DNA of 64,000 nt from assembly GCA_964559865.1 (NCBI GenBank), contig CAZLJD010000030.1, forward strand, positions 125,196-189,195, written 5' to 3'. Both the position numbers and the translations under genes were made by a program. How positions within the stretch are numbered: the stretch's first letter is position 1; every line of letters begins with the position of its first letter. The DNA is from an uncultured Synergistota bacterium. Lineage in GTDB: Bacteria > Synergistota > JAGHAJ01. The notes beneath the pieces were generated by a model, which did no database searches, was not told the DNA's origin, and was given only the letters and a program-made list of their open reading frames with translations. This document shows positions 11,268-59,767 of the stretch, piece by piece.

Positions 11268-11305
11268 GCTTTTGTGCCGTTAAACTCTTATGGTAAAATA
11301 TTGGC

Positions 11306-20229: not shown

Positions 20230-21024
20230 GTGAAGGATGTGGTGTTGGTTGAGGATACGGCTCTTTACGGTAGGATACCTATCCTGGGTGTCCATGGTCT
20301 TTCTCAGCTGCTACAGGTAGATGGTTTGAATATCCTATACGATGTTGGTTCTGACTATCGAGTGCTTTTAAATAACGCAGCGTTCTTGGGCGTGAACCTG
20401 AGAGATGTCGATGTAGTGGTGCTCTCTCACGGGCACTATGACCATGGTAATGACCTCCACAGGGTATTGCAGGTTATAGGGAAGAAGGAGATTCCGGTTA
20501 TAGTTCACAAAGAGGTCTTCTCTAAGAAGCCACCTCTATCGTTAAACACTACGCCGGAGGATATAAAATACTGGGGCGGTAGGTTGATATACATAGAGAA
20601 ACCTTACAGGATAGGAGACAATATCTTGATTTCTGGAACTGTGCCAAGATTGAAAGGCAATCCTCATCATCCGGTATTGGATGACGGAGGTAATGTAGTT
20701 GATGAAGTGGTAGATGACATGTCTATATTTATAGATCTTGGGGAAAAGGGAATAGCTGTATTCACCGGTTGTGGGCATAGCGGGATAATAAATATAGTGG
20801 AGTATGCAAGGGAGCTGTGGGGTAAGCAGAGGATATGTTGTGTTGTTGGAGGATTGCACGGGCAGAAACAGGGTAGGGAGGTTGTGCAAAGGAGTATTGA
20901 TTTTCTCAAAGGTTTGGGTGCAGATGTATTGGCACCTATGCACTGTTCTGCAGGTATAAGAGATGGTTTGAGAGATGAACCCTCCTTTATGGGTTTGTGC
21001 TCCGGGAGTGTACTTGAGATTTGA
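20230..21024 (+). CDS. MBL-fold metallo-hydrolase
   Basis: LSHGHYDHGNDL zinc-binding motif and downstream GCGHSG. Confidence 0.7.
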   Translation: MKDVVLVEDTALYGRIPILGVHGLSQLLQVDGLNILYDVGSDYRVLLNNAAFLGVNLRDVDVVVLSHGHYDHGNDLHRVLQVIGKKEIPVIVHKEVFSKKPPLSLNTTPEDIKYWGGRLIYIEKPYRIGDNILISGTVPRLKGNPHHPVLDDGGNVVDEVVDDMSIFIDLGEKGIAVFTGCGHSGIINIVEYARELWGKQRICCVVGGLHGQKQGREVVQRSIDFLKGLGADVLAPMHCSAGIRDGLRDEPSFMGLCSGSVLEI

Positions 21025-25074: not shown

Positions 25075-26062
25075 CATAAAGGCTATTGTGCTGTTTTCGG
25101 GTGGGCTGGATAGTATACTGGCAGCGAAAGTGCTAATAAAAGAAGGTATAGAGATTATACCGGTGACCTTTCGTTCCCCGTTTGTTAGCATAGAGCATGC
25201 AGTTAGGCTCTCCGAAAGGCTTTTGGGTAGATCTACTATTGTGGTGGATATATCCAGCGAAATGATGGATGTTGTGAAATACCCTCGTTATGGGTATGGT
25301 AGCCAGATGAACCCGTGTGTTGACTGTAGAATACTCACATTCAGACTGGCTGGAAACATGATGGAAGAACTCGGTACGCACTTTATGGCTACCGGTGAGG
25401 TGGTTGGGGAGAGACCTTTCACTCAGAATAGGGGTACACTCCTTTTAACTGCAAGAAAGTCAGGGTATGATGGTTATATTCTCAGGCCGCTTTCTGCGAA
25501 GCTTTTACCTCCTACGGTGCCCGAGGAGATGGGGTGGATAAATAGAGAACACCTTTTTTCTATACAGGGAAGATCTCGTAAGGAACAGTTTAGACTTGCT
25601 CAAACCTTTGGGGTGGACGAATACCCATCTCCTGCAGGTGGTTGCATCCTTACGGACCCATCTTTTTCCAAGAGGATGAAGCGCATAATCTCTTACTGGC
25701 AAGATGTGGAACTCTTTGAGGTGGAACTTTTGAAGTTGGGCAGGCACTTTATCTTTGGAAAGAAAAACTGGCTCGTAGTTGGCAGGAATAGAAGCGAAAA
25801 TAAGGATCTTGAACGGCTTTCAGCGGATAGGGGACTTTGTGTGCTGCAGGTCGTCGGTTATCCGGGACCTGTAGGGGTTCTCATGTGTAGGGGGAAAAAT
25901 AGTTGTCCTGTCTTCCTCTCGGCAGGTATTGTAGCGAGTTACAGCGATGCCCCTGTGGGTGAGACTGTTGAAGTCTCCGTTAAGAGTGGTGCAGGAGTGC
26001 AGGTGGTTGATGTAGCTGTTCGGGACAAGAAGAGGTTTAGGAAGTACATGATAGTCGTATGA
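25058..26062 (+). CDS. PP-loop ATP pyrophosphatase, MnmA/ThiI-like (probable thiolation/adenylation enzyme)
   Basis: SGGLDS PP-loop at residues 13-18, NPCVDC and AGGCILTD cysteine blocks resembling tRNA thiolase catalytic Cys; likely true start GTG 25067 after GTAAGGAG. Confidence 0.6.
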   Translation: MASVGSIKAIVLFSGGLDSILAAKVLIKEGIEIIPVTFRSPFVSIEHAVRLSERLLGRSTIVVDISSEMMDVVKYPRYGYGSQMNPCVDCRILTFRLAGNMMEELGTHFMATGEVVGERPFTQNRGTLLLTARKSGYDGYILRPLSAKLLPPTVPEEMGWINREHLFSIQGRSRKEQFRLAQTFGVDEYPSPAGGCILTDPSFSKRMKRIISYWQDVELFEVELLKLGRHFIFGKKNWLVVGRNRSENKDLERLSADRGLCVLQVVGYPGPVGVLMCRGKNSCPVFLSAGIVASYSDAPVGETVEVSVKSGAGVQVVDVAVRDKKRFRKYMIVV

Positions 26063-26970
26063 GATACATAAAACTCTACCATTCAGGGGAACTTTTCAAA
26101 AAGATAAGAGAGATAGAGAGTTACCTTTATCCGTGTACTCTATGCCCGAACAGATGTGGTGTAGATCGGGCTTTTGGAAAGGTGGGGATCTGTCGTTCTG
26201 CTGTTTCTCCCCGGGTTGCGAGTTACAACCTGCACTTTGGTGAAGAGCCTCCTCTGGTAGGTGAAGGTGGGTCAGGTACTATATTTTTTAGCGGATGTTC
26301 TTTGCACTGTGTATTTTGTCAGAACTATCCTATAAGTCACTACAATGTTGGAAATGATGTTTCAATAGGCAGGCTTGCTGAGATGATGTTGGAGCTACAG
26401 AACAGGGGAGCTGTTAACATAAATCTGGTTACTCCTACTCACTATGTACACGCTGTATTGAGAGCATTACCTATCGCAATAGAGATGGGGTTGAGTATAC
26501 CCATAGTGTTTAATTGTAGTGGATATGAAAGGGTGGAGGTTCTAAAGATACTGGAAGGGGTGATAGACATTTACCTCCCGGATGCAAAGTATGGGGATAA
26601 CGGGGTTGGAAAGAGATATTCTGGAGTGAGTGACTACTGGGAGGTGAATCGGAGAGCGCTTAAGGAGATGTTCAGGCAGAAAGGGGATAAACTGGTGGTA
26701 AACAGTGATGGAGTGGCTGTTGAAGGGATGATTATAAGGCATCTCGTTCTGCCCTCCAATGTGTCCAATAGCATCAAGGTTCTGAGATTCATCGCAGAGG
26801 AGCTCTCGGTAAATATCCCAATTAGTCTTATGAGTCAATACTTTCCTGCGTTTAGGTCAAGTAAGTATAAGGAGATCAACAGAAAACTCTTTTTACAGGA
26901 GTATGAAGAGGTGAAGGAAGCAGCCATTTCGATGGGATTTAGGGACCTTTGGATTCAGGAGATTGGTTGA
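26059..26970 (+). CDS. radical SAM protein, PflX-like (pyruvate formate-lyase activase homologue)
   Basis: CSLHCVFCQN (Cx3Cx2C) plus N-terminal CTLCPNRCGVDR cysteine cluster; ATG overlaps upstream stop (ATGA). Confidence 0.8.
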   Translation: MRYIKLYHSGELFKKIREIESYLYPCTLCPNRCGVDRAFGKVGICRSAVSPRVASYNLHFGEEPPLVGEGGSGTIFFSGCSLHCVFCQNYPISHYNVGNDVSIGRLAEMMLELQNRGAVNINLVTPTHYVHAVLRALPIAIEMGLSIPIVFNCSGYERVEVLKILEGVIDIYLPDAKYGDNGVGKRYSGVSDYWEVNRRALKEMFRQKGDKLVVNSDGVAVEGMIIRHLVLPSNVSNSIKVLRFIAEELSVNIPISLMSQYFPAFRSSKYKEINRKLFLQEYEEVKEAAISMGFRDLWIQEIG

Positions 26971-33279: not shown

Positions 33280-34368
33280 TTGAAAGAACTTACAGTTTTG
33301 GACTTAAAGGATATACTGCTTGGCTGTACACTCCTTGGCACAGGGGGAGGTGGAGATCCAGCGGAAGGTTGGCACTTGATTGAGAGGGCAGTAAATAGTG
33401 GGAAGAAGTTTGTTTTAGCAGGATTGGATGAACTCCCTGAAGATGGGATTGTTGCAGTGCCTTACTTTGTTGGTTCTCTTGGGGGAAAGAAATTAGATTC
33501 TGTATATAAGGAGGGAGAAGTTGTAAGGTCTTACAAGTTGCTCGAAGACTACATGGGTAAGCAATTTTACGGTGTCCTTTCTACGGAACTTGGGGGTGCT
33601 AACACTGCGGTAGCTCTAATGACTGCTGCTATGATGGGCTATCCTATTGTAGATGGAGACCCTGCGGGCAGATCTGTACCCGAGCTTCAGCATACCACAT
33701 ATTATATCAAGGGTATAGGTATGTGTCCGTTTTCGGTGGTTACACCGTTTGGCGATGAGATGGTGGTACCCACCGTGAGTAGTGACTTTATGGCGGAGAG
33801 GATCGTTAGAGCTGTGGTATGGGGTTGTGGCACGAATGTCGGTGTTACCTCTCACCCGGTTTCTGGAGATAGATTGAAAGAGGCGGTAATAGGTGGTGCT
33901 ATAACAGATGCGCTGAATCTTGGCAGAGTGATAAGGGAGCATGCAGGGACGATAAAAGGAGTTGTCGAGGCACTCGTTGGTGAAGGTGGTTGGTATCTCC
34001 TCTTTGAGGGCGTGTGTATAGATGCGTTGTATGAAGAGAGGGAGGGCTTTACTGTTGGTCATTTTGTTTTGCAGGGCGAAGGGGATTTTACTGGTCATAG
34101 ATATAAGGTTTATCTCAAGAACGAAAACATGTATTCTGAGAAAGATGGCAGGATAGATGTTACCGTTCCAGACCTGATAAGTGTGGTGGATGAAGAGGGT
34201 ATGCCGGTTACCAATCCAAATGTTTTGGTGGGGAAGCGTTATGCGGTTGTTGGACTCCCTGCACCTTCGGTGTGGAGAACGCAGGGTGGTTTGAATATAT
34301 TTGGTCCTAAGTATCTTGGGTTGGATGTGGATTATGTGCCGATAGAAGAGAGCCGTGGGGGTGTTTAG
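33280..34368 (+). CDS. conserved hypothetical protein (possibly DUF917-like)
   Basis: 362 aa with GTGGGGDP glycine-rich motif near N-terminus; family name from memory, unverified. Confidence 0.45.
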   Translation: MKELTVLDLKDILLGCTLLGTGGGGDPAEGWHLIERAVNSGKKFVLAGLDELPEDGIVAVPYFVGSLGGKKLDSVYKEGEVVRSYKLLEDYMGKQFYGVLSTELGGANTAVALMTAAMMGYPIVDGDPAGRSVPELQHTTYYIKGIGMCPFSVVTPFGDEMVVPTVSSDFMAERIVRAVVWGCGTNVGVTSHPVSGDRLKEAVIGGAITDALNLGRVIREHAGTIKGVVEALVGEGGWYLLFEGVCIDALYEEREGFTVGHFVLQGEGDFTGHRYKVYLKNENMYSEKDGRIDVTVPDLISVVDEEGMPVTNPNVLVGKRYAVVGLPAPSVWRTQGGLNIFGPKYLGLDVDYVPIEESRGGV

Positions 34369-34370
34369 AG

Positions 34371-35420
34371 ATGCCGACTAAGTTTTCTTTGGAGACCATG
34401 AGTGCTGCCTTCAAGTTGATGAGAGATATTGTTGGTGTGAAAGAGGGAGAGAGTGTTGTTATAACTGCAGATACGGGTAGTGACTGGAGTGTGGTTGAGG
34501 CTGTGGCAAAGGCATCGACTTTGCTGGGAGCAAAGCCGATGGTGGTATGGTATCCTATGCCACTGGGAGTGGGTAAGGCGGCTGACCCTTACTTGCCACA
34601 GAAACCGTTGGAGGCTGCGGTTTCCAGTGCAGATGTCTGGATAGAGTTTAACATGGGGTGGCTGCTCTATTCTACTGTTTGGGATAATGTGATGGCAGAG
34701 GGTAGTGTTAGGTATCTGTGTTTGGTCGGCATGGGCGTGGACATGTTGGTTAGAACGGTAGAACGGGTTGATGTCGATCTTGTGCTTGAATTCCAGGATA
34801 AACTCGTTGAAGTAACCAAAAGCACACGCAAGATGAGGCTTACCTCTCCTGTGGGTATGGAGCTTGAATTTGAGAATGACCCAGCAAGACCGATTTTCAC
34901 GGAGGGGCGTGTCATGGGTCCAGGGGATTACATGTTGATGGGACAGGTAGACTGGGCACCGATTGAAGAGAGCATAAATGGGGTTTTGGTCTTTGATGGA
35001 TCTGTCTATCCACCAGAGGATGTTGGACTTTTGCGTGCTCCTATATTTTTGGAAGTAGAGAAAGGTCGTGTAGTTTCTGTGAAAGGTGGCTCTGAAGCTA
35101 AGAGGTTTGAGAGATGGCTCAAGAGTTTTGATGACCCTGGTATGTTTAATATAGCTCATATCTCTTATGGGTGCAACCCAGGAGCAAAGCTAACGGGTAA
35201 TATCCTTGAGGATGAGAGGGTCTGGGGTGCTGTGGAGTGGGGGATTGGTAATCAGGCAGATAGCTTCAAAGGGTTAGCGGGTCCTGCTAAGAGCCATACA
35301 GACGGCATATGTTTGAATCCCACACTGATTGCTGATGGGGAGTACCTTATAAAGGATGGAAGTTATGTTCATCCACTGCTTGCAGATATGGAAAAGAGGA
35401 TAATCGGGTCTTCTGGGTGA
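34371..35420 (+). CDS. M29-type aminopeptidase-like protein
   Basis: C-terminal blocks EDERVWGAVEWGIGN and HTDGI resemble AmpS/PepS-family metalloaminopeptidases; tentative. Confidence 0.45.
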   Translation: MPTKFSLETMSAAFKLMRDIVGVKEGESVVITADTGSDWSVVEAVAKASTLLGAKPMVVWYPMPLGVGKAADPYLPQKPLEAAVSSADVWIEFNMGWLLYSTVWDNVMAEGSVRYLCLVGMGVDMLVRTVERVDVDLVLEFQDKLVEVTKSTRKMRLTSPVGMELEFENDPARPIFTEGRVMGPGDYMLMGQVDWAPIEESINGVLVFDGSVYPPEDVGLLRAPIFLEVEKGRVVSVKGGSEAKRFERWLKSFDDPGMFNIAHISYGCNPGAKLTGNILEDERVWGAVEWGIGNQADSFKGLAGPAKSHTDGICLNPTLIADGEYLIKDGSYVHPLLADMEKRIIGSSG

Positions 35421-35497
35421 GCTGGCGGATTCTTTGTATTGACAAAGTGGGCAGTTTGGGGTATCCTTTGTGTGGAAGAAGGGGGGAGGTATCAGGA

Positions 35498-36292
35498 ATG
35501 AAGAGGATAAGAGGGTATATGATTTTCTTTGTGGTGGTTGGAATTCTGGTGTCTTTGTTTTCAACGCTTGCTTTTGCGAAGAGTAATAAGGTGTATGAAG
35601 AATACAAGAAGACGCTTGCGCAGTTTCAGAAGACAGTGGTATATAGAGGGAAGAGGGCTCGTATTTCTATTACTGTTACGTACTACTCTGCAAAGCTGGT
35701 GGATGCCATAGTGAACTGGGAAGCCGAAAAGCACCTGTGGACGGAGGACGAGGCAGAAAACTACAAGTATCAGCTGTTGAAGACATTACACTTTGAAGAT
35801 ATGCTCCCGTTCAAAATTTCCATAGATAATAGAGGACCGAGCATGCACCCGGCACCGTTTGGTTCTAAGGTTACTCTTTGGATAGACAGCAAGAGCTACA
35901 AACCTAAGAAGTACGACTTGAGGTTTAACTTTAAGATAATAGGGAAAAGGGAAGGTATGGTCTTCTTTGCGAGGAGAGGCAAGAATGGGAAGCCGATAAT
36001 AAAGCCGTCGTCCTCTCTCATGCAGATAGTTATAGACAGTTCCATAAGCCCGGTGACCAGTGGGCGGAATTTTGACTTTACATTTAAGTGGGGACATCCT
36101 TACGAGAATCTCGAGGCGCTTGCGAAAGCCGATATAGCCAGAGCCCGTTTAGAGATTGATAGGCTTATGAGGAGGATACAGAGGCTTACGGATAAAAAGA
36201 AGGAGCTTCTGGAACAGTTGAAAAAGATAGAACAAGAGATCGAAATGATAAAGAAGAGAATAAGTGAGCTTGAAAGCGTAAAAGAGAAGTGA
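35498..36292 (+). CDS. hypothetical secreted/membrane-anchored protein with C-terminal coiled coil
   Basis: ATG 35498 preceded by GGGAGGT; N-terminal signal-like segment; K/E-rich heptad region at C-terminus. Confidence 0.5.
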   Translation: MKRIRGYMIFFVVVGILVSLFSTLAFAKSNKVYEEYKKTLAQFQKTVVYRGKRARISITVTYYSAKLVDAIVNWEAEKHLWTEDEAENYKYQLLKTLHFEDMLPFKISIDNRGPSMHPAPFGSKVTLWIDSKSYKPKKYDLRFNFKIIGKREGMVFFARRGKNGKPIIKPSSSLMQIVIDSSISPVTSGRNFDFTFKWGHPYENLEALAKADIARARLEIDRLMRRIQRLTDKKKELLEQLKKIEQEIEMIKKRISELESVKEK

Positions 36293-40278: not shown

Positions 40279-41751
40279 GTGGATATTCTTACCAGAGCGA
40301 AGGGGTATGTTTCTGCACAGGTAATGAAAGGTGTAGCGGCTTTTCTCTCTAAAGCGTCAGATGCACATGTGAAGAAGGTGTTTTTACTCCTTTCGAGAAT
40401 GTCTCCCACCAAGTTTCATAGAGAGACTTTCAGGGGTATTGCAGATATGGCGGACCAAAACCACCCGTTTTATGTCTTGTGGAGAAGCATATTTAAGGAC
40501 CTTCATCCAAACTGCAGGAACAAGCTTGTCATAAATTTGCTTGTCAACTCGATGATAATAGGTAGGGGTATCAGAGACAAGAAAGAGAAAGAGTACGATG
40601 TTCACTTGCCGTATTTTATGGTGATTAGTCCGACGATGAAGTGCAATTTGAGGTGTAAAGGTTGTTATGCTGCTAAGTACCCCAAGGCAAAAGAATTAAG
40701 CTTCGAGGATGTGGATAGGATTATTACTGAGGCTAAAGAGCTTGGTATGTACTTCTTTACTATGTCCGGTGGTGAGATATTTACGAGAAAGGATATGTTT
40801 GATATCTGGGAGAAACACAATGATGCTTACTTCCAGCTCTACACCAATGGTACACTCATAACGAGAGATGTGGCAAAGCGCCTTGTAGAGCTCGGGAATG
40901 TGGCCCCTATGATAAGTATAGAGGGTTCTAAGGAGGAGACAGACTGGCGCAGGGGGAAGGGCGTTTACGACAGAGTTATGGAAGCAATGGACATCTTGAG
41001 GGAAGAGGGGGTTTTGTTTGGCTTCTCAGCTACAGCTACGAGAACGAGCACTGAGGCTATATCCAGTGAGGAGTTTATAGACTTTATGATAAGCAAGGGT
41101 GCAAAGGTTGGGTGGTATTTCCAGTACATTCCTACTGGCGATGCACCAGACCTTGAATACATGGCCACTCCTGAGCAGAGAGCCTTGCTCCGTGAGAGAG
41201 TTCGAGAGTATCGTAAGACCAAGCCGATATTCCTCGGTGACTTCTGGAATGATGGTTTGTATGTAGATGGTTGTATGGCTGCTGGTGAGAGGTACATGCA
41301 TATCGTTGCAACTGGAGATGTTGAGCCGTGCGTGTTTGCACACTTTGCTGCTGACAATATACATGAGAAGAGCCTTGTAGAAATATTAAAGAGCCCGTTC
41401 TTCACTAAGATAAGAGAGGCAGCGCCTTACGATGATGATAACCTTACGAGACCTTGCATGATCATAGATCATCCGTGGGTGCTTAGAAGGATAGTTAAGG
41501 AGACAGGCGCTCACCCAACGCATCCGGGAGCAGAGATGCTTCTGGGTCCTCTGGCACCCAAGCTGGACGAGTATGCGAGGAGGGTTAAAGAAATATTTGA
41601 TCCTATATGGGAAAAAGAGGATCTTCCACTTTACATGAAGCTCCTTAGCAAAGAGGATAAGCCCTACAACTATGAGAGATTTATGCGTAGGAGGAGAGAG
41701 GTAGAGGAAAGGAGAAAGAAAAAAGAGACCGAAGAGATTTTGACGAAGTGA
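40279..41751 (+). CDS. radical SAM protein with N-terminal extension and Cys-containing C-terminal region; function unknown
   Basis: CNLRCKGC (Cx3Cx2C) at ~residue 122; additional conserved-looking Cys (GCMAAG, EPCVFAHF, RPCMIIDHP); GTG start after AAGAAGGGGGGA. Confidence 0.8.
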   Translation: MDILTRAKGYVSAQVMKGVAAFLSKASDAHVKKVFLLLSRMSPTKFHRETFRGIADMADQNHPFYVLWRSIFKDLHPNCRNKLVINLLVNSMIIGRGIRDKKEKEYDVHLPYFMVISPTMKCNLRCKGCYAAKYPKAKELSFEDVDRIITEAKELGMYFFTMSGGEIFTRKDMFDIWEKHNDAYFQLYTNGTLITRDVAKRLVELGNVAPMISIEGSKEETDWRRGKGVYDRVMEAMDILREEGVLFGFSATATRTSTEAISSEEFIDFMISKGAKVGWYFQYIPTGDAPDLEYMATPEQRALLRERVREYRKTKPIFLGDFWNDGLYVDGCMAAGERYMHIVATGDVEPCVFAHFAADNIHEKSLVEILKSPFFTKIREAAPYDDDNLTRPCMIIDHPWVLRRIVKETGAHPTHPGAEMLLGPLAPKLDEYARRVKEIFDPIWEKEDLPLYMKLLSKEDKPYNYERFMRRRREVEERRKKKETEEILTK

Positions 41752-51589: not shown

Positions 51590-51665
51590 GCTCTCATCGT
51601 CTAGCGGCCAAGGACACTGCCCTTTCAAGGCAGCGGCGGGGGTTCGAATCCCCCTGGGAGCGCCA
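51590..51665 (+). tRNA. tRNA-Glu (anticodon TTC)
   Basis: 76-nt cloverleaf folded by hand: acceptor GCTCTCA/TGGGAGC, anticodon stem CTGCC/GGCAG with loop CTTTCAA, T-arm GGGGG-TTCGAAT-CCCCC, encoded CCA. Confidence 0.9.
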
Positions 51666-51669
51666 AGGG

Positions 51670-51745
51670 GCCGGTGTAGCTCAACTGGTAGAGCAGCGGA
51701 ATCGTAATCCGCGGGTTGTCCGTTCGAGTCGGATCACCGGCTCCA
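51670..51745 (+). tRNA. tRNA-Thr (anticodon CGT)
   Basis: 76-nt cloverleaf: acceptor GCCGGTG/CACCGGC, D-arm GCTC-AACTGGTA-GAGC, anticodon stem GCGGA/TCCGC with loop ATCGTAA, T-loop TTCGAGT, encoded CCA. Confidence 0.9.
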
Positions 51746-51747
51746 TT

Positions 51748-52746
51748 TCAGCATATCCTTGGGAGCTGTTCTCCTACGAGTGAGTCTACGATCCGCTTTC
51801 CCCCTATGTTTGTCTTCATTGCGACAATACCGGGGTGCTTGGCTGTAACCTCTCCTATGATTGCTGCGTCTCTGCCAAGGGGGTGTCTTTTCATTGTGTT
51901 AAGTATTTCTTCTGCTGCCTCTGGGGCTGCAAAAAGAAGGAACTTCCCCTCGTTTGCGAGGTACAGCGGATCAAAACCAAGGATCTCGCAGTATGCCTTT
52001 ACATCGGGTTTGATTGGTATCTTTGACTCCTCTATCTCTATGCCTAAGGTGTTATTAGCCAGAAATTCATTCAACACTGTCCCCAACCCACCTCGGGTTA
52101 CATCTCTCATAGCGTGTATGTCCTTCGTTTTTGGGAGGAGCTCCCTTACCAATGGGTATACAGATGTACAATCACTTCTGAGCCCTTTGGGCAATTCTAG
52201 TCCGTTTCTAAGTGCCATAAGAGTTATAGAGTGTTCGCCCAGGCTACCACTGAGTATTATTTTATCCTTCTCTGATATCCTGTGTGGACCTATATCTATC
52301 CCATCTGGAATAACACCTATGCCGGCTGTATTAATAAAGATCTTGTCTACCTTTCCCCTTTCCACAACCTTTGTATCGCCTGTGACTATCTCTACCTCGT
52401 TCTCTTTTGCTGTAGCTGATATGGACTTTATTATTTCCTCAAGCGTATCTTCTGAAAGTCCCTCTTCTATTATAAGTGAGAGACTCAAGTACATAGGGGT
52501 TGCACCAACCATGGCAAGGTCGTTTATCGTGCCTGTTACGGAGAGTTTGCCTATGTCTCCCCCGGGAAAGAACAGGGGTGAGACGGTGTGTGAGTCGGTG
52601 GTAAATGCGATCCTTGTTGCAGATATATTGAGTACGGCAGAATCCGTAAGTTGTGAGAGTATAGGATTTCCTATTTTCGGCATCAGTCTGTTTTGAATGA
52701 GCTCCCTACTCAGCTTTCCACCGCTCCCGTGATCTAATGTTATCAT
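51748..52746 (-). CDS. hypE: hydrogenase maturation carbamoyl dehydratase HypE
   Basis: MITLDHGSGG N-terminus, AIR-synthase-like fold blocks, C-terminal PRIC motif. Confidence 0.9.
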   Translation of the reverse strand: MITLDHGSGGKLSRELIQNRLMPKIGNPILSQLTDSAVLNISATRIAFTTDSHTVSPLFFPGGDIGKLSVTGTINDLAMVGATPMYLSLSLIIEEGLSEDTLEEIIKSISATAKENEVEIVTGDTKVVERGKVDKIFINTAGIGVIPDGIDIGPHRISEKDKIILSGSLGEHSITLMALRNGLELPKGLRSDCTSVYPLVRELLPKTKDIHAMRDVTRGGLGTVLNEFLANNTLGIEIEESKIPIKPDVKAYCEILGFDPLYLANEGKFLLFAAPEAAEEILNTMKRHPLGRDAAIIGEVTAKHPGIVAMKTNIGGKRIVDSLVGEQLPRIC

Positions 52747-53834
52747 ATCACCTTACCTCCATACTTGTAGTAGGCAGCACAACTCCCTTCGGTTGATACC
52801 ATGCAGGGACCTACAGGCTCTAAAGGTGTGCACGCCTTTCCAAAAAGAGGGCACTGATAGGGTTCAATTATCCCTTTGAGGACATCTCCACACCGACATC
52901 CGGGTGGATCTTTACTCTCAAGTTTAGGTATCTGGAATCGCTTTTCTGCGTCTATGTGAGTAAAGTCCCCTTTTAGCTGCATGCCTGACATCGGTATCGT
53001 GCCGATGCCTCTCCACTGTACATCTGTTGTTTGAAATACTTCCTTTAATACTGCTTGTGCTTCTTTGTTTCCCTCCTTCTTTACCACATATCTGTAAGCG
53101 TTTTCCACTGCAGGAGTTCCTTCTGCAATCTGGGATACCATTCGATATATGGCGTACAGGATCTCTGAGGCTTTAAATCCCCCTATAACGGCAGGTTTGT
53201 GGTATCTCTCTGGTATGAAGTGGTAAGGTTTTTCGCCTATTACTACACTCACATGTCCGGGGCACAAGAATCCGTCTATGGCAATATCTTTATCTTCCAA
53301 CAGCATTTGCATTACGGGAGGTATTACCTTGTGCATAACCACTATGGATAGGTTTTTTATCCCTTTTTGAACGACCTCTTTTGCCAGCACAGCAGTTGCA
53401 GGTGCTGTAGTCTCGAAACCCACACCCAGAAAGACCACTTCTTTGTCAGGATTGTGCTTAGCGATCTCTATGGAATCTGTTGCTGCATACACTATCTTTA
53501 CCGTTGCACCTCTGGCTATAGCCTTTCTCAAAGAGTTGCCGTTGCTACCGGGGACCCTTATCATGTCTCCGTAAGTTGCTATAATGACGCCCTTTTGCTG
53601 GCTCAACCATATAGCTTTATCTATCTCCGATGTCGGTGTTACACACACTGGACATCCAGGTCCGCTGATGAAATTTACTTCCGGGGCGATGGCTTCCCTT
53701 ATGCCATATCTGAACATGTTTACTGTGTGAGTCCCGCAAACTTCCATAAATCGTAGATTTCGGGGTGCTTTTTGCTTTATCTTTTTGATGAGTGTTTCGG
53801 TCCACTCGGGATTGTCCCAGTCAGGAAGACTCAA
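52743..53834 (-). CDS. hypD: hydrogenase maturation factor HypD
   Basis: MEVCGTHT, GPGCPVCVTP, GFETTAP, CPGHVS motifs and C-terminal Cys cluster. Confidence 0.9.
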   Translation of the reverse strand: MSLPDWDNPEWTETLIKKIKQKAPRNLRFMEVCGTHTVNMFRYGIREAIAPEVNFISGPGCPVCVTPTSEIDKAIWLSQQKGVIIATYGDMIRVPGSNGNSLRKAIARGATVKIVYAATDSIEIAKHNPDKEVVFLGVGFETTAPATAVLAKEVVQKGIKNLSIVVMHKVIPPVMQMLLEDKDIAIDGFLCPGHVSVVIGEKPYHFIPERYHKPAVIGGFKASEILYAIYRMVSQIAEGTPAVENAYRYVVKKEGNKEAQAVLKEVFQTTDVQWRGIGTIPMSGMQLKGDFTHIDAEKRFQIPKLESKDPPGCRCGDVLKGIIEPYQCPLFGKACTPLEPVGPCMVSTEGSCAAYYKYGGKVI

Positions 53835-54046
53835 TACCGTTCCATCTCCTCAAATAGGGAAAGCATCTCGTTGACCTCTTTTTCACTGATTCTCTCAATT
53901 GCAAAGCCGGAGTGCACCATTACATACTCTCCAACCTTCACGCCGGGTAGCATGTCTATCCTTATTCTCTGCCTTACGCCGCTTAGCTCACCTATTGCGT
54001 AAGGTGGCGATATTTCCACAACCTTTAAGGGAATACCTAAACACAT
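53831..54046 (-). CDS. hypC: hydrogenase maturation factor HypC
   Basis: MCLGIPLKVVEI N-terminus (HypC MC(L/A)xIP motif); track ORF extends 30 codons further upstream. Confidence 0.85.
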   Translation of the reverse strand: MCLGIPLKVVEISPPYAIGELSGVRQRIRIDMLPGVKVGEYVMVHSGFAIERISEKEVNEMLSLFEEMERY

Positions 54047-54093
54047 AAGTTCATCACCCTTTTTATATTTTACTACCACAGTCAAGCAATTTG

Positions 54094-54102
54094 TGATATA
54101 AT
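54094..54102 (+). promoter_or_regulatory. extended -10 promoter element (TGaTATAAT) upstream of ccdA
   Basis: Read directly, ~35 nt upstream of the ccdA start in the divergent hypC/ccdA intergenic region. Confidence 0.4.
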
Positions 54103-54135
54103 CACATGCATAGTTTTGGGGTAGGGAGGTAAGCA

Positions 54136-54828
54136 ATGTTCCCCAATGTAGGTTTTGTATCTGTTGACATTTGGACGGCCCTTGTTGCTGGGGTAGCTAC
54201 TTTCTTTACGCCCTGCATATTGCCGGTTATACCGGGTTTTATAGCGTACTTCATAGCCGATAAGGAGAATAACCTGTTTAGGACTACACTTAACGCTGTT
54301 GGTTTTGTCGTTGGGCTTTCTTTCGTGTTTATTAACATGGGGGTGCTCTCGGCGTATCTGGGTGGGTTTATAGAGGGTAACAAGGGGTTGGTAAATGTCG
54401 TCTCGGGTTTGATCGTGATTGCGTTTGGAATACACATAGCTGGTATAGTGAAGATACCTTTTGTTGGGAAGATGGGTTTTAACATCAATGTAAGTAGTGG
54501 AAAGAGGGGATTCATAAGAGCTCTTGTCTTGGGGTTGGCGTTTTCTGTTGTGTGGAGTCCGTGTCTTTCTCCCACTTTAGGTGCTATACTGATCATTGCA
54601 TCTAAGTCTGCGGAGATTTGGAAGGGGGCAGAGTTGCTTTTGTTTTACTCTGTGGGTATGGGAATTATGTTTGTTGCAACGGCGATGGCTACCAGAAGAC
54701 TCTTGTGGGTGATCTCCAAGATGCAAAGGTATCAGAGGGGCATAGAGATAGCAACTGGTGTTTTGTTAGTGGTAATGGGTGTTATTATAGCGTGTGGCAA
54801 GTTTGACTGGATAGCTACTCTGATTTAG
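54136..54828 (+). CDS. ccdA: CcdA/DsbD-family membrane thiol-disulfide electron transporter
   Basis: Two conserved Cys in TM helices (FFTPCILPV and WSPCLSPTLGAIL). Confidence 0.8.
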   Translation: MFPNVGFVSVDIWTALVAGVATFFTPCILPVIPGFIAYFIADKENNLFRTTLNAVGFVVGLSFVFINMGVLSAYLGGFIEGNKGLVNVVSGLIVIAFGIHIAGIVKIPFVGKMGFNINVSSGKRGFIRALVLGLAFSVVWSPCLSPTLGAILIIASKSAEIWKGAELLLFYSVGMGIMFVATAMATRRLLWVISKMQRYQRGIEIATGVLLVVMGVIIACGKFDWIATLI

Positions 54829-54838
54829 GGGTGGTAGT

Positions 54839-55147
54839 ATGGGTAAGTTGGAGGATGTGAAAGAGCGGATAGAGAAGGGCGAAGTTCTCCTTATAGAGTT
54901 TTCGAGCGATGGTTGTGCACCCTGCGAGGCGATGAAACCCGTTGTAGAAAAGGTGCTATCGGAGGAGCGGTTTAGAGGTGTAAGGTTTGAGGAGGTGAAT
55001 CTCAGTATGTATCCGGAATTCTCCGTTGAGTTTGGGGTGTTTGGCGTACCTACCGTCGTTGTGTTTAAGGACGGTAGAGAGTACAAGCGGAATGTGGGAT
55101 ATATGAGCGAGAAGAAGTTGAGGAAGCTTTTAGGGGGTGTGGTATGA
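54839..55147 (+). CDS. thioredoxin-family protein (CAPC active site)
   Basis: 102 aa; FSSDGCAPCEAMKP, thioredoxin-fold length. Confidence 0.8.
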   Translation: MGKLEDVKERIEKGEVLLIEFSSDGCAPCEAMKPVVEKVLSEERFRGVRFEEVNLSMYPEFSVEFGVFGVPTVVVFKDGREYKRNVGYMSEKKLRKLLGGVV

Positions 55148-55872
55148 GGAGATTTTTGTATTTTCTGTGCATACTCTTTTTGTTGGTAGGTTTTGAGGTA
55201 GGATATGCCAAGGTGCCCGAACCGTTGAAGTCTTTTGATGTAGCAGCCCAGCTTTCCAAAATAGAGGGTAAGGACCTCATCGTGATGTTTTCCAGCAATA
55301 GTTGTTACTATTGTAGAAAATTTATCAGCGTTACGTACACGGACCCTGCCGTTCAGAGATTGCTGAGCAACAATTACATCTTCTCTGAGTTACTGCTTGA
55401 GGACAAGAAACACAAGATGCACTTTATGGGTAAAGAGCTCACCTACCTCGATTTTGCGCGTGCATTTGAAATAAGGGGTACACCCACTTTTGTCTTTTTT
55501 GATGCAGCTATTAAACCGATAACTGGTTACCCGGGTTATGCCCCTCCGCAGGTGTTTGTGAAGGTACTCCGATATATATCTCAGCGGCTGTTCAAGAAGG
55601 TGAAGTTCGATGTATACTACAAACGGCAGGACAGCTTCTGGGGTAAGCAGAGCGTAAGAGAGATTACGAAACAGCAAGCCTCGTTTGTCCTGAGGAACGA
55701 TCCTTATGCCGTGCTACTTAAACCAGAAGACAATATAGAAGGTCTTGACAGAAGCAGGAGGTATGTGGTTTGCAGTGGTCAGTTCAGTGGTGATATCGTG
55801 AGTAAGATGAAGGAGATGGGTTTCTTTACCATTTTGGAGGTTAAGGGGTGTAAGTCTGGACTTGGGGATTAG
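55144..55872 (+). CDS. secreted thioredoxin-fold protein (CYYC motif)
   Basis: Signal peptide, then VMFSSNSCYYCRKF in a thioredoxin-like context and a ~120-aa C-terminal extension. Confidence 0.55.
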   Translation: MRRFLYFLCILFLLVGFEVGYAKVPEPLKSFDVAAQLSKIEGKDLIVMFSSNSCYYCRKFISVTYTDPAVQRLLSNNYIFSELLLEDKKHKMHFMGKELTYLDFARAFEIRGTPTFVFFDAAIKPITGYPGYAPPQVFVKVLRYISQRLFKKVKFDVYYKRQDSFWGKQSVREITKQQASFVLRNDPYAVLLKPEDNIEGLDRSRRYVVCSGQFSGDIVSKMKEMGFFTILEVKGCKSGLGD

Positions 55873-55877: not shown

Positions 55878-56654
55878 TTATATGTCCAGTCTCATGCCGT
55901 CACTTGCTGCTATGACATTTATACCCGTTTCTTCGGATATTGACTGTGCAACTTTGTAAGGGTTTGCTTTCAGCATGGTGCCGCCAAAGTGCGTGAGAAC
56001 GATGAGCTTAGGTCTTATCTCATTTGCTACTGTCACTACATCTTCTACGGATAGGTGTTGTATTGATGTCCCCTTTACAGACTTGTATCTCACGGTATTC
56101 ATGACTATTATCTCAGAATCTTTGTAGCTTTCGATTAGCTCTGGGAAGAATCGGGTATCTACCATGAAGGAGAGTAGCTTATCTTTTAGTTTGAACTTTA
56201 TTCCGTAGGTTTCTACTGAGTGTTTGTGCCTTGTGGATGTACTGAAAGGTACGCCATCTATGTGGTACACTGAATTGCCCTTTAACACTTGGATGTTGGA
56301 AAGAAAGGCTCTTGTGTACGGGAGTACGACCCTGTTTTCTCCGAAAAGGGCATCTTCGGGTGCAAACAGCTGTCCTTTCTTTTTTATCCCTCCAAGTGTC
56401 ATGCCGTCTATGAGTATGTTTACATCGTTTGAGTGGTCTATGTGGAGGTGCGAAAGTATGATGGCATCTATGCTCTCGATGTCTATTTTAGGCCTTGATT
56501 TGGCCATTCTCACGAGCGTTCCTGGGCCGGGATCCAGGATGATGTTTATGTCATTTATATGTATGAAGACACCCCCAGACGCCCTTATTTGCTTTGACAC
56601 GATGAATCTAGCACCTGCTGTGCCGAGAAACTTTATGTAATTTTCGGACATCAC
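55878..56654 (-). CDS. MBL-fold metallo-hydrolase
   Basis: LSHLHIDH zinc motif; overlaps the upstream nifX-like gene by 4 nt. Confidence 0.7.
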   Translation of the reverse strand: MMSENYIKFLGTAGARFIVSKQIRASGGVFIHINDINIILDPGPGTLVRMAKSRPKIDIESIDAIILSHLHIDHSNDVNILIDGMTLGGIKKKGQLFAPEDALFGENRVVLPYTRAFLSNIQVLKGNSVYHIDGVPFSTSTRHKHSVETYGIKFKLKDKLLSFMVDTRFFPELIESYKDSEIIVMNTVRYKSVKGTSIQHLSVEDVVTVANEIRPKLIVLTHFGGTMLKANPYKVAQSISEETGINVIAASDGMRLDI

Positions 56655-57070
56655 TCAAGAGCAGGTATTACCTGCTCCCTTTCACCAGACTTTCTCTTCT
56701 GGATGAGTGAGTATATGGTGTGGAAGTTTTCTGCTATTACCTGCAGACACTCCTCAACGCTTTCCCTCTTGACAACCACAGGTTGTATTTCTGTTGACTT
56801 ACTCATCTTTATGAAGTTTGGACTCAGTACTCTTCCTACGAAGACCTCCACGGAAGGCAGAATGGACATGATTTTCTTCATCTTACCGCTGCTACCGTGT
56901 TTCTCTTCCTCTTCGTCTTCAAGAGCGATGTTCTTCACCTTTTTTACTAATTCGTACTCTCCATCCTCCTTGACCCTGTAGACAAGGAATTGTGATGTGT
57001 CGCCGAGATGTTTCTTTGGCATGCTCTTACCGTCATCACTTCCCAGTACTATAGTGATACACTTGTCCAT
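56651..57070 (-). CDS. NifB/NifX-family (dinitrogenase FeMo-cofactor-binding-domain-like) small protein
   Basis: ITIVLGSDDGKSMPKKHLGDTSQFLVYRV N-terminus resembles the NifX/NafY-type fold; acidic linker. Confidence 0.55.
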   Translation of the reverse strand: MDKCITIVLGSDDGKSMPKKHLGDTSQFLVYRVKEDGEYELVKKVKNIALEDEEEEKHGSSGKMKKIMSILPSVEVFVGRVLSPNFIKMSKSTEIQPVVVKRESVEECLQVIAENFHTIYSLIQKRKSGEREQVIPALE

Positions 57071-57082
57071 AACTATCCCTCC

Positions 57083-57967
57083 TTATACCCCTATCATGTC
57101 GAGTAACATGGGTAACTTGTTCAGTGATGCTATAGGCATTATGTGGATACCATCTGCGAGATGCTCTCTTCTTATGGCTATTATGATTTCTGCTGCTATC
57201 TTAAATCCCTCCTCCAGTGGGTTGCTGGCGTTTGCTATCCTCTTTATGATGTGTTCTGGCACTATTATACCCGGTATGTGCTCATTCATGAATGTTGCCA
57301 TTCTCACGGAGCGTACGGGTATTATTCCTGCCAGTATCTTGGTTTTTATACCGGAATCGCTCATTAGCTTTATGAAGCTTTTCCACCTCTGCAATTCGAA
57401 GACTGCCTGCGTTTGAAAGAACTGTGCACCTGCTTTTATCTTCTTTTTCATAGTGATTATCTGCAGCTCTTGGGGTGTGAAACTTGGGTTTGTTACTGCA
57501 CCTGCAAACAGGTTTAGCGGTGTGTCTATCTGATTATTGCCCATATCTCTGCCTTCTGATAGTTCTCTTATTGCCCGAAGTATTCCCACAGAATCTAAGT
57601 CGAATACCGGTTTTGCTGCTGGATTATCTCCTAATGAGGGGTGATCTCCTGTAAGTGCGAGAAAGTTCTTTATCCCTAAGGATGCTGCAGATATGATCTC
57701 TCCCTGTATAGCTATCCTGTTTCTGTCCCTTCCAGTAATGTGGAGCACGGGTTCAAATCCCTCTTCTATTACCGTAAGGGCTGCAGATAGGGCACTCATC
57801 CTTACTGATGCACCCTGAAAGTCGGTGATGTTTATGGCATCAACTCTTCCTATTAATGGTTTTATATGTTTCCTTAGGTGGGTTCTGTCTATGCCCTTTG
57901 GTGGTGCAACTTCCACCGTTATAACGAAATCTTTACTGTTAAGTGCTTTTCTGAACTCCATGTGCAT
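57083..57967 (-). CDS. metF: methylenetetrahydrofolate reductase
   Basis: VITVEVAPPKG, FALTGDHP, GAQFFQTQAVF blocks of MetF. Confidence 0.85.
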   Translation of the reverse strand: MHMEFRKALNSKDFVITVEVAPPKGIDRTHLRKHIKPLIGRVDAINITDFQGASVRMSALSAALTVIEEGFEPVLHITGRDRNRIAIQGEIISAASLGIKNFLALTGDHPSLGDNPAAKPVFDLDSVGILRAIRELSEGRDMGNNQIDTPLNLFAGAVTNPSFTPQELQIITMKKKIKAGAQFFQTQAVFELQRWKSFIKLMSDSGIKTKILAGIIPVRSVRMATFMNEHIPGIIVPEHIIKRIANASNPLEEGFKIAAEIIIAIRREHLADGIHIMPIASLNKLPMLLDMIGV

Positions 57968-58636
57968 CTACCTCTTTCTTACATTTATGTGTCTTGGTTT
58001 TATAACTTTAGAGTAGTCCTTTGGTGGCAGGATTTCCTCCATACGCTCCAGCTGTTTTAATCTCGACAGCCTTTTGTATATGGATACCCAGACGCACTCC
58101 TCTTTAGGGTTTACCTCACACATGCCGTTTTTTGCCCCTCCACACGGTCCATTTAGCAACCCCTTTGGGCATCTTGTAACCGGACATATTCCACCTGTGT
58201 AGTTTAAGACGCACGAACCACATGCACTGCAGGTTTCGTTAAAGTATCCTACTCTTTCTACTTCACCTATAAAGAGGGTGTTTGTTCCAGAGTACACGGG
58301 TATCTCCTCACTGAGAAGCTGTTCGGATGCTTTTGCAACCACTTGGACACCGTCACCGCATGCTATACTCAGTATCGAGTCGGAGTCGTTTAGCTCGTTA
58401 ATGTGTTTTTTTAGATCCAGTTTTACCCTCTGCAAGTTACATGAAGGGTCTATTACTACATACCCGGTGACGAGCTTTCCTGCAGATTGAAGTCTTTCCT
58501 TTAGCTCCAGAATCTCGGGTTCTCCTCCTACTTTTGCAAGTGCAGAACACACGGCACAGCCACTGAGAAACACCTTTTTGCTCCCTTTTAACACATCTAA
58601 GATCTCTTCAAAGGGTTTCTGCTCGGATATAATCAT
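57968..58636 (-). CDS. metV: MetF-associated Cys-rich subunit (MTHFR C-terminal-like, MetV-type)
   Basis: Cys-rich 222-aa protein (CAVC, CSACGSC, CPVTRCPKGLLNGPCGG) directly upstream of and abutting metF. Confidence 0.7.
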   Translation of the reverse strand: MIISEQKPFEEILDVLKGSKKVFLSGCAVCSALAKVGGEPEILELKERLQSAGKLVTGYVVIDPSCNLQRVKLDLKKHINELNDSDSILSIACGDGVQVVAKASEQLLSEEIPVYSGTNTLFIGEVERVGYFNETCSACGSCVLNYTGGICPVTRCPKGLLNGPCGGAKNGMCEVNPKEECVWVSIYKRLSRLKQLERMEEILPPKDYSKVIKPRHINVRKR

Positions 58637-58687
58637 CTTTCATTACTCCTTCCTTAATTCCTGCTGGTAAAAGATTTTACCACGCTT

Positions 58688-59617
58688 TTACTTGCTATAG
58701 TAGAATGTATTTCCTTTAAACACCTTTTTTATGACGCCTTTCGTGTTTTCGAGTTCTTTAAAGAAGCTTTTTAACTCTACATCGAAGTATGCTTTGACTG
58801 TCTGTTGTATCTGTTCTTTTCTCATTGGATGCCTTTTTATTATCTCCAATATGGCCTTTACGGGTGGTAGGTCTGTTTGAAGCTTGAATGTCCCTTCTTC
58901 CTGATATGCAATGCTTACAGCTTCTCCTATTATTGCGTGTGCATTTGCAATCGTTTCTATATCTGGCGGTTCTACCCATGGTTCAGCTGGTGGTCTTATA
59001 GGCACATTTATGTATGTCCTGTCTGGAGATATCTCTTTTAAAGTGTAATTTAGTTTTAAAAGGTGTTCGCTGGAGTCGTTTACACCTTTTACCAACATTA
59101 TCTCTATCCACAACTGTCCTTTGAACGCTTTTCTGAATTCTATCATTCCCTCGATGATCTCAGATATTTGCATCTTCCCGATAGGTCTATTTATCTTCTG
59201 GAATGTCTGCTGGTCAGATGCGTCCAGAGAAGGCATAACTACGTCAGCGTTTAGGAGTTCTGATCTGACATCTTCTTGGGATAACAGTGCGCCATTTGTT
59301 ATGACAGCTACAGGTATCTCCGTAAAGCCCTTTATGCTTTTGATGATTTTTCCGATGCTCTTGCAAAGAGTGGGTTCTCCCTCTCCCACGAGTGTGATGT
59401 AGTCTATTTCCTCTTTACCTGATACAGCCAGTTCCACCTCTCTTATTATTTCCTCTGGGGGAAAGTAGTCCTGCCTCTCATTTGTCATGTGATCGGTTCT
59501 GCCAAGCTGACAATATATGCAAGAGTAGTTACAGGTCTTTGAAGGGATGGGATTGACCCCGAGAGACTTTCCCAGTCGTCTGGAAGGTACCGGACCGTAC
59601 ACATACTTGTACTGCAT
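58688..59617 (-). CDS. radical SAM protein (function unknown)
   Basis: YGPVPSRRLGKSLGVN N-terminus and CNYSCIYCQ (Cx3Cx2C). Confidence 0.8.
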   Translation of the reverse strand: MQYKYVYGPVPSRRLGKSLGVNPIPSKTCNYSCIYCQLGRTDHMTNERQDYFPPEEIIREVELAVSGKEEIDYITLVGEGEPTLCKSIGKIIKSIKGFTEIPVAVITNGALLSQEDVRSELLNADVVMPSLDASDQQTFQKINRPIGKMQISEIIEGMIEFRKAFKGQLWIEIMLVKGVNDSSEHLLKLNYTLKEISPDRTYINVPIRPPAEPWVEPPDIETIANAHAIIGEAVSIAYQEEGTFKLQTDLPPVKAILEIIKRHPMRKEQIQQTVKAYFDVELKSFFKELENTKGVIKKVFKGNTFYYSK

Positions 59618-59767
59618 TTTATCCCTTCTTTCGCAAGTTGTCTGGTAAAATTATACCATCTTGTTGCAAATGGCACTCCGGGGGTGCAAAATTTTCTACT
59701 TCATTAAAATAGTAAATGTGTGTTATAATTTCCTGAGGTTGGCTATTCTGGTTCCTTGGGGGGCAAA

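Follow-up and report, generated by a model that had tools for sequence, protein, structure and literature searches.

Organization of the Five-Gene Block

We analyzed a 64-kb stretch of DNA from an uncultured Synergistota bacterium (contig CAZLJD010000030.1, positions 125,196 to 189,195), referred to here as the window, focusing on five consecutive open reading frames (ORFs) on its minus strand, at 55878-59617. In order, they encode an enzyme of the radical S-adenosylmethionine (SAM) type (rSAM), MetV, MetF, a small NifX-like protein and a hydrolase with the metallo-β-lactamase (MBL) fold. An earlier reading of this DNA (the original prediction) had described five minus-strand genes with small gaps or overlaps at this location, and both the ORFs and the reading of the junctions confirmed this layout. 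The rSAM and metV genes are separated by a 51-nt spacer (58637..58687, minus strand), as read from the sequence. The metV TAG stop codon abuts the ATG of metF, leaving 0 nt between them, or 6 nt if the alternative metF start is used. The 12 nt between metF and the nifX-like gene hold an AGGAGGG ribosome-binding site, and the nifX-like gene and the MBL gene share a GTGATG overlap of 4 or 1 nt, depending on the MBL start. Good ribosome-binding sites precede metV, metF and the nifX-like gene.

A ribosome-binding site, GGAAGGAG, lies in the spacer, together with an inverted repeat rich in AT, TGGTAAAA-TC-TTTTACCA, that has no T-run behind it. As a terminator or processing site, this hairpin was rejected: it lacks the T-run, it received no terminator call, and it is not kept in a relative whose rSAM is 79% identical (below, the 79% relative), in which two stem positions are mismatched without compensation.

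The block forms a minus-strand island, between a gene that diverges from it upstream and a thioredoxin-like gene that converges on it downstream. The only room for an operon promoter is the divergent intergenic region of ≈140 nt (59618..59755), flanked by the rSAM start and by a plus-strand gene that matches PF06695 (Sm_multidrug_ex). Internal promoters or terminators had been named in advance as evidence that would speak against an operon. No minus-strand terminator-like sites were found within the block, and the 13 promoter-like matches in it are at the chance level given by shuffled sequences (10.8 ± 3.4 expected). Neither a riboswitch nor any other Rfam family was detected upstream of or inside the block, the only Rfam matches in the whole window being three tRNAs. 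The five genes most likely constitute one transcription unit.

MetV and MetF

MetV (57968-58636, minus strand, 222 aa) matches PF12225/DUF5981 with 130 bits and corresponds to the Fe-S/Zn subunit of a type II methylene-tetrahydrofolate (THF) reductase. It is 55-58% identical to the MetV proteins of Clostridium, Romboutsia and Tepidanaerobacter, and 53-58% identical to clostridial MetV in the comparison with known type II enzymes. Alignment with 13 MetV sequences revealed 11 invariant cysteines (C27, C30, C66, C93, C136, C139, C142, C151, C156, C165, C173, C181 region); the window protein carries all conserved cysteines, and has an insertion of six residues in the EQLLSE region. MetF (57083-57967, minus strand, 294 aa), the flavin-binding catalytic subunit, matches PF02219 with 130.3 bits against a cut-off of 24. 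It also matches the MTHFR half of the NCBIfam model PRK08645 (227 bits) and the MTHFR structures in the PDB (E about 1e-10). An alternative ATG at 57961, which is the choice of public gene callers, would give a protein of 292 aa.

The original prediction had recognized a MetV/MetF pair, an identification borne out by the Pfam matches, the cysteine pattern and the position of metV immediately upstream of metF. On these sequence criteria, metV-metF is a canonical type II MetVF pair. Enzymes of this type are described as containing FMN and Fe-S clusters and as taking electrons in vitro from ferredoxin but not from NAD(P)H; the Clostridium ljungdahlii enzyme is reported to carry FMN and two [4Fe-4S] clusters, and the characterized clostridial metVF genes adjoin folD and lpdA (PMC8760232). 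In the window, the metVF neighbors are the rSAM, NifX-like, MBL, thioredoxin-like and DsbD genes, and there is no adjacent RnfC2 (type III) or HdrCBA-MvhD (type IV). No Wood-Ljungdahl or other one-carbon (C1) genes were found elsewhere in the 64-kb window, and neither were metK, metH or metE.

The Radical SAM Enzyme

The rSAM gene (58688-59617, minus strand) encodes a protein of 309 aa that starts with MQYKYVYGPVPSRRLG and matches PF04055 with 72.9 bits. Its cluster motif is C29-x3-C33-x2-C36. Among 18 aligned sequences from bacteria and archaea (50-79% identity), 78 columns were invariant, and the window protein has all 78. These include the motifs VYGPVPSRRLGxSLG, KTCxYxCxYCQLGRT, GEP, PxD, NxPIRPPAExW and RHP, all of which are present in the window protein. 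The family comprises at least 7885 homologue clusters, which span bacteria and archaea (ANME, Asgard, Anaerolineae and Thermotogae among them), and its bacterial and archaeal members are approximately 50% identical. C29, C33 and C36 are the only invariant cysteines, C85 being variable. Because the Cx3Cx2C cysteines alone are conserved, auxiliary clusters of the NifB or TYW1 type are excluded.

The original prediction was correct in assigning this protein to the radical SAM enzymes. The YGPVPSRRLG family has neither an NCBIfam equivalog nor a solved structure. The scores lie far under every NCBIfam cut-off, including those for MoaA (57.9 vs 284 bits), viperin_w_prok (56.2 vs 180) and TYW1 (41.6 vs 318), and MoaA and prokaryotic viperin were rejected as identities on this basis. 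So was TYW1/COG0731, since the TIGR03972 match (41.6 vs 318 bits) covers residues 77-185 only and there is no second cysteine cluster. The name "wyosine synthetase" (COG0731) is given by JGI to many homologues of the rSAM, in a family that is widespread in bacteria. To our knowledge, wyosine is absent from bacteria. A search of the accessible literature for the rSAM motif, COG0731 and DUF5320/DUF134 returned nothing relevant.

PDB sequence matches span the rSAM core only (E about 1e-7). An AlphaFold2 (AF2) model of the protein had a mean predicted local distance difference test score (pLDDT) of 78.5, and in Foldseek searches with this model NifB, viperin, PFL-AE and MoaA were inseparable, with E-values of about 1e-7 to 1e-6; TYW1 was matched as well. 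Weak winged-helix Pfam matches in the C-terminal domain of the family were seen in one fusion protein only (P0271, see below).

The NifX-Like Protein

The nifX-like gene (56651-57070, minus strand) encodes a protein of 139 aa that matches PF02579 with 29.8 bits, marginally above the cut-off of 26.3. With TIGR02663 (nifX) it scores 21.4 bits against 112, and it is therefore not a NifX equivalog. A PDB sequence search gave spurious L9 matches only, and comparison at the level of the fold was required. The AF2 model (pLDDT 68, predicted template modeling score 0.66) found NifX as its best Foldseek match in the PDB (9ian_F, E 1.4e-5, TM 0.68). Seven of the top eight matches belong to the NifX family, and NafY, the orange protein (ORP), PH0822, MTH1175, TM1816 and TM1290 are among the top matches. 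The NifX fold proposed for this protein is thus upheld by both the PF02579 score and the structural matches.

Two further features that the original prediction had ascribed to the protein were not borne out. The supposed acidic tail is an internal loop (E50-D-E-E-E-E-K), with pLDDT below 50 at residues 52-61, and the C-terminus, QKRKSGEREQVIPALE, is mixed to basic and forms a conserved helix in the subfamily. Metal-cluster binding is unsupported: the conserved candidate ligands are H21 and H58 only, no cysteine is conserved, and there are no nif genes in the window. Profile searches placed the protein in a distinct subfamily of ≈135 aa, with 209 representatives at E<=1e-3, in which H21, G23, N47, H58 and K63 are invariant. 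A homologue of 74% identity is labelled as coming from a Synergistetes metagenome-assembled genome.

Domains of the window type were also seen fused to other domains, in one protein each. The partner is TrmO_N plus a Ni-insertion (LarC-like) domain in P0262, a GNAT acetyltransferase in P0283, a class I SAM methyltransferase in P0290 and an ASCH domain in P0367. The fusion partners hint at SAM-dependent or nucleic-acid-modifying enzymes rather than at metal-cluster handling.

Association of the rSAM and NifX-Like Proteins in Other Genomes

To describe the surroundings of the two proteins elsewhere, we used 80 loci with rSAM orthologues, the best-scoring of at least 598 matches (other species from many phyla, 43-56% identity, up to 8 kb of flank), and 80 metagenomic MetV loci, the best-scoring of at least 594 matches (42-56% identity). 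Genes of the PF02579 family, counted with a hidden Markov model (HMM) built from the PF02579 neighbors of rSAM orthologues, lay within 8 kb in 30 of the 80 rSAM loci (52 ORFs) and in a single one of the 80 MetV loci, an enrichment with a Fisher p of about 1e-9, not corrected for phylogeny. Among the two nearest ORFs on each side of the rSAM, the Pfam counts were 15+10 for ParA/CbiA (+Fer4), 7+8 for PF02579, 5+3 for DUF5320, 5 for NifU and 4 for FeoA/DtxR. Clustering of the neighbors in these loci gave recurrent Mrp/MinD-type ATPases, DUF5320, DUF134 and cupins, and TrmO-like genes recur near rSAM orthologues as well. Several fusion proteins are encoded near the rSAM, including a cation-efflux transporter-PF02579, NUBPL-PF02579, PF02579-DUF5320 and DUF134-PF02579; NUBPL-PF02579 is the MrpORP architecture (PMC6345978). 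Overall, the settings of the rSAM orthologues are typically of a metal/Fe-S, ORP-like kind, comprising PF02579, Mrp/NUBPL, MinD-ferredoxin ATPases, DUF5320, DUF134, efflux-PF02579 fusions, NifU and FeoA/DtxR.

The association is closest in the three nearest rSAM orthologues with readable context, L169, L171/L172 and L173 (the loci of P0005, P0007 and P0009; 57%, 56% and 57% rSAM identity), where a PF02579 gene of 116-117 aa overlaps the rSAM start by 11-20 nt. Two orthologues on short contigs were left out of this comparison (P0006, 58%, 5.4 kb; P0004, 55%, 1.3 kb). The overlapping PF02579 proteins share 26-31% identity with the NifX-like protein of the window (E 4e-9 to 4e-12), and score 78-90 bits on a model of the window-type subfamily vs 36-40 bits on the generic model. 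Furthermore, a metagenomic protein of 447 aa (P0271) is a full-length fusion of an N-terminal NifX-like domain to a YGPVPSRRLG rSAM, recognized by Pfam as PF02579 plus PF04055. It is 35% identical to the window NifX-like protein (E 3e-29) and 38% identical to the window rSAM (E 9e-84). The gene next to it encodes a protein judged by eye to be YggS-like, which is uninformative. The N-terminal extension of another protein (P0053) was considered as a second such fusion and rejected, since it was not recognized by Pfam or by the purpose-built HMMs. In the window, both genes lie in what is apparently the same operon, two genes apart and in reversed order.

The P0271 fusion, the overlapping adjacency and the neighborhood enrichment support the joint action of the rSAM and NifX-like proteins suggested in the original prediction. 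As far as the searchable literature goes, this association is undescribed.

A conserved protein of 138-140 aa is encoded upstream of the NifX-like/rSAM pair in the same three loci (L169:5254-5670, L171:4248-4670, L173:3779-4198). It lies directly upstream in L169 and L171, and a methyltransferase gene intervenes in L173. It has only a weak SocA/Panacea-like Pfam match and no homologue in the window.

Linkage to metVF

No MetV, MetF or homologue of the window MBL was found within 8 kb in any of the 80 rSAM loci, and all 80 MetV loci lacked this rSAM as well as any NifX-like gene of the window type and this MBL. Direct tblastn and phmmer searches with the window NifX-like protein and MBL against the 160 loci also gave no matches; for PF02579 this null result was a problem of sensitivity, solved by the Pfam counts and the purpose-built HMMs. 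Of the 62 MetV loci with enough downstream sequence, about 48 have MetF no more than 100 nt after MetV. The ORFs flanking MetV in the 80 loci include FolD (24-26), FTCD_C (12), Pyr_redox_2 (14) and CbiA/ParA (10-11); the neighbors FolD, FchA, Lpd-like and CooC-like are those of the classical Wood-Ljungdahl cluster.

The exact proteins of the block are encoded on a 226-kb contig of a metagenome-assembled genome. Beyond this, the five-gene arrangement is shared only with the 79% relative, which is collinear with the window across all 20 kb fetched. Because the collinearity extends over the whole 20 kb, as expected from shared ancestry, this synteny is uninformative on selection. In the loci sampled, the metVF linkage is confined to this lineage. 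The tie of the rSAM and NifX-like proteins to C1 metabolism that the original prediction had proposed is consequently not supported by either set of loci, and the conserved rSAM-metV-metF-nifX-like synteny, whose absence had been set beforehand as a refuting test, was not found outside the immediate lineage.

The MBL Hydrolase

The MBL gene (55878-56654, minus strand) encodes 258 aa, or 257 aa from the ATG at 56651, with a PF12706 match of 65.7 bits and an HLHIDH motif; the MBL start overlaps the nifX-like stop. The nearest PDB sequences are 1zkp (5e-12), entered as "hypothetical protein BA1088", and 6kns (2.4e-7), entered as "putative metal-dependent hydrolase". RNase Z was rejected as an identity, since TIGR02651 scores 71.1 vs 292.95 bits over the N-terminal half only, and so was a cyclic-nucleotide phosphodiesterase equivalog (40.6 vs 400 bits). 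A phosphodiesterase role would be a guess from the weak RNase Z-like similarity. No relatives of this MBL occur in the 160 sampled loci (80 rSAM and 80 MetV).

An rSAM gene of Athalassotoga overlaps an MBL gene, which suggested a conserved rSAM/NifX-like/MBL trio; this was rejected, since the Athalassotoga MBL belongs to a different family. That family adjoins YGPVPSRRLG rSAM genes in 9 of the 80 loci. Its homologue in the window is a separate MBL-fold protein of 264 aa (20230-21024, plus strand), with an E-value of 6e-41 to the family HMM and 27% identity to the Athalassotoga copy, located 36 kb from the window rSAM.

Other Genes in the Window

Between hypC and the five-gene block lie a DsbD_TM membrane protein gene and genes for two thioredoxin-fold proteins of 102 and 242 aa (54136-55872, plus strand). 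They are convergent with the MBL gene, with stop codons 5 nt apart, an arrangement that is kept in the 79% relative. The hydrogenase maturation genes hypC/D/E (51748-54136, minus strand) are near the five-gene block and 40 kb away from the hydrogenase, on the opposite strand. The hydrogenase itself is encoded by a complete Mrp-antiporter-type membrane-bound [NiFe] hydrogenase cluster (1600-11300, plus strand), comprised of MnhE/F/G, MbhD/E, Oxidored_q2, two Proton_antipo_M, NADHdh, Oxidored_q6, Complex1_30kDa, Complex1_49kDa and a 4Fe-4S protein. Almost all genes of the window are on the plus strand, and the GC skew is strongly positive, at 0.13-0.39 in every 2-kb bin of 1-52 kb; only hypCDE and the five-gene block, the two blocks on the minus strand, have a negative skew. 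A tandem pair of tRNA genes, Glu-TTC and Thr-CGT (51590-51745, plus strand), immediately precedes the hypE end of the minus-strand block, and a Lys-TTT tRNA gene is located at 14182-14257 (plus strand).

Two other contexts with radical SAM genes were noted. A tight trio on the plus strand (23992-26970), DUF763, NFACT-R_2 (THUMP-like RNA-binding) and a radical SAM protein, follows DeoC and Amidohydro_2 genes and represents a second uncharacterized rSAM context in the window. A radical SAM/SPASM protein of 490 aa (40279-41751, plus strand) could be of the peptide- or cofactor-maturase type. A protein resembling S-Me-THD (DUF917) is followed by ORFs of 349 and 291 aa without a Pfam match at E<=1e-5 (33280-36292, plus strand). 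The rest of the window includes Opp transporters and housekeeping genes.

Interpretation of the Five-Gene Block

The block is probably a lineage-specific composite operon that combines a type II MetVF with a split rSAM/NifX-like pair and an MBL, rather than a dedicated C1-cofactor system. By analogy with the characterized enzymes, MetVF would make 5-methyl-THF with FMN and two [4Fe-4S] clusters, and would use reduced ferredoxin in vitro and no NAD(P)H. An anabolic role, in methionine and SAM supply, or a role in the methyl branch would be more likely for MetVF than acetogenesis, because no Wood-Ljungdahl genes were found in the window, which does encode an Mrp-Mbh hydrogenase as well as peptide transporters. 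The rSAM and the NifX-like protein may be seen as the two halves of a widespread uncharacterized partnership. The rSAM would cleave SAM at its single [4Fe-4S] cluster to yield a 5'-deoxyadenosyl radical, and the radical would then act on a ligand, either a metal-sulfur species or a small molecule, for which the two invariant histidines of the NifX-like protein presumably provide the binding site. The pair appears to have become separated and reordered around metVF in this lineage, and the MBL would be a lineage-specific addition, presumably coupled translationally to the nifX-like gene.

A number of observations weigh against this interpretation. With the rSAM upstream and the nifX-like gene two genes downstream, the window shows the opposite order to the other loci, and a simple insertion of metVF therefore does not explain the arrangement. 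The location of metVF exactly between the partner genes could reflect selection for co-expression. The NifX-like protein scores 24 bits on the generic model of rSAM neighbors built without the window sequence; an HMM that included this sequence had given an inflated 70 bits. The closest window-type NifX-like proteins outside the lineage (P0252, P0253 and P0254) are stand-alone genes within the reach of their contigs, and therefore add no support for the rSAM partnership. No convincing sigma-70 promoter was found upstream of the rSAM, the single match there covering the rSAM start codon. Finally, the two sets of 80 loci are best-scoring samples rather than exhaustive ones.

Four other explanations were weighed. 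On the reading of the original prediction, the operon would be a functional unit in this lineage, and the rSAM and the NifX-like protein would assemble a metallocofactor for MetVF or insert it, or alter MetVF or another C1 enzyme. The tight packing of the five genes with coupled junctions, the position of metVF between genes that are partners elsewhere, the nature of MetV as a cysteine-rich Fe-S/Zn protein (PMC8760232) and the preservation of the arrangement in the 79% relative are all consistent with such a role. However, the linkage is found in none of the rSAM or MetV loci sampled, the characterized clostridial MetVF have no such genes adjacent to them (PMC8760232), the rSAM family also occurs in archaea, whose loci lack MetV, and the collinearity of the 79% relative over 20 kb deprives its synteny of weight. 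We regard this explanation as unlikely. About equally unlikely is an operon for SAM economy, in which MetVF feeds the regeneration of methionine and SAM, the rSAM consumes SAM, and the MBL hydrolyses a product or by-product. The NifX-like subfamily would then serve SAM-dependent enzymes, possibly ones that modify RNA or nucleotides, as an accessory domain instead of carrying a metal cluster, which would suit its lack of a conserved cysteine and the fusions of its domain to the rSAM and to methyltransferase, TrmO_N, GNAT and ASCH domains. The methyltransferase gene before the pair in L173, the recurrence of TrmO-like genes near rSAM orthologues, and the action on nucleotides or tRNA of MoaA, viperin and TYW1, the nearest sequence relatives of the rSAM, point in the same direction. 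Nevertheless, each fusion partner was observed only once, and the dominant neighborhood of the rSAM is one of metal and Fe-S proteins, not of RNA modification. Furthermore, there is no SAM or THF riboswitch and no metK, metH or metE in the window, and the metVF linkage is not conserved.

It is quite unlikely, too, that the genes are merely neighbors in a compact genome, with at least the rSAM transcribed apart from metVF-nifX-like-MBL. The 51-nt spacer, with its inverted repeat, is the only real gap in the block, the gene functions are heterogeneous and there are promoter-like matches inside the block; but these matches are at chance level, the spacer hairpin has no T-run and is not conserved, the block contains no minus-strand terminator, the other three junctions are 0-12 nt or overlapping, and the block is an island between divergent and convergent genes. 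Much more improbable is a split NifB-like system, in which the rSAM fuses Fe-S clusters or inserts carbide and passes a complex cluster on to the NifX-like protein as carrier. NifB indeed pairs an rSAM with a NifX-like domain (PMC5715403), the small protein has a NifX/NafY fold, and NifB structures were nominally the top Foldseek matches of the rSAM (7jma, E 2e-7). However, the scores of viperin, PFL-AE and MoaA were indistinguishable from those of NifB, the conserved cysteines are those of Cx3Cx2C alone, with no ligands for the auxiliary K-cluster (K1/K2), no NifB model was among the 25 NCBIfam matches listed of 29, the domain order in the fusion is reversed, and there are no nif genes in the window.

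The composite operon is thus the interpretation that we prefer. A more speculative extension, which we consider quite unlikely, is that the rSAM and the NifX-like protein constitute an undescribed two-component system that is widespread in anaerobic bacteria and archaea, with a NifB-like pairing but a single cluster and a reversed domain order, acting on a metal-sulfur or small-molecule ligand, and that it was recruited around metVF with MetVF itself, or the methyl-THF/SAM branch, as its client.

For MetVF, the result is mostly negative, since no conserved hint at the physiological electron donor of type II enzymes comes from its unusual neighbors. For the rSAM, a very large and highly conserved orphan family gains a concrete partner hypothesis, in which a NifX-fold protein occurs fused to the rSAM, overlapping it or enriched next to it, usually in ORP-like metal and Fe-S surroundings. 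The two proteins represent a defined pair to co-express, and provide a testable idea on PF02579 proteins outside nitrogen fixation.

Comparison with Known Systems

MetVF itself is known, and its operon context here is a new but poorly supported variant. In the type II enzymes of Clostridium ljungdahlii, C. formicoaceticum, Thermoanaerobacter kivui and Eubacterium callanderi, metV is likewise located directly upstream of metF. Unlike the 80 sampled MetV loci, however, the window metVF lies outside a Wood-Ljungdahl cluster (folD, fchA, lpdA, cooC), and it is flanked instead by rSAM and NifX-like genes. The MBL shares its fold and the HxHxDH motif with BA1088 (1zkp) and the 6kns protein, neither of which has a database-named function, and its coupling to a NifX-like gene is seen in this lineage only.

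The surroundings of the rSAM orthologues resemble the ORP clusters of Desulfovibrio, which combine PF02579 proteins with Mrp/MinD-type Fe-S ATPases, include the MrpORP fusion and are sigma-54 regulated (PMC6345978). PF02579 is present in 30/80 and Mrp/MinD in 34/80 of the rSAM loci, and one locus (L073) has the NUBPL-PF02579 fusion. The likeness is most apparent on an Athalassotoga saccharophila contig (L170, 1-7676), where a sigma-54 activator, ZnuABC, PF02579, two CbiA/ParA-ferredoxin (Fer4) ATPases, a ferredoxin, the rSAM and an MBL form an apparent long operon that resembles a Desulfovibrio ORP cluster plus the rSAM. An rSAM is not among the five proteins listed for the ORP complex (PMC6345978), a comparison that covers the complex rather than the full orp gene clusters. 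The window itself has no Mrp/MinD, DUF5320 or DUF134 ORFs at E<=1e-5, and its NifX-like protein and the generic ORP-type PF02579 proteins are of different subfamilies.

The model of the NifX-like protein superposes on NifX and NafY, and the histidine of HxG is conserved; unlike them, the protein has no nif context and no conserved cysteine. The rSAM differs from NifB in its lack of auxiliary-cluster ligands, the similarity being at the superfamily level only, and the NifX-like domain that is C-terminal in NifB is N-terminal in P0271. The pairing of an rSAM with the PF02579 fold is nevertheless common to both, within one protein in NifB and in P0271, and as separate genes in the window.

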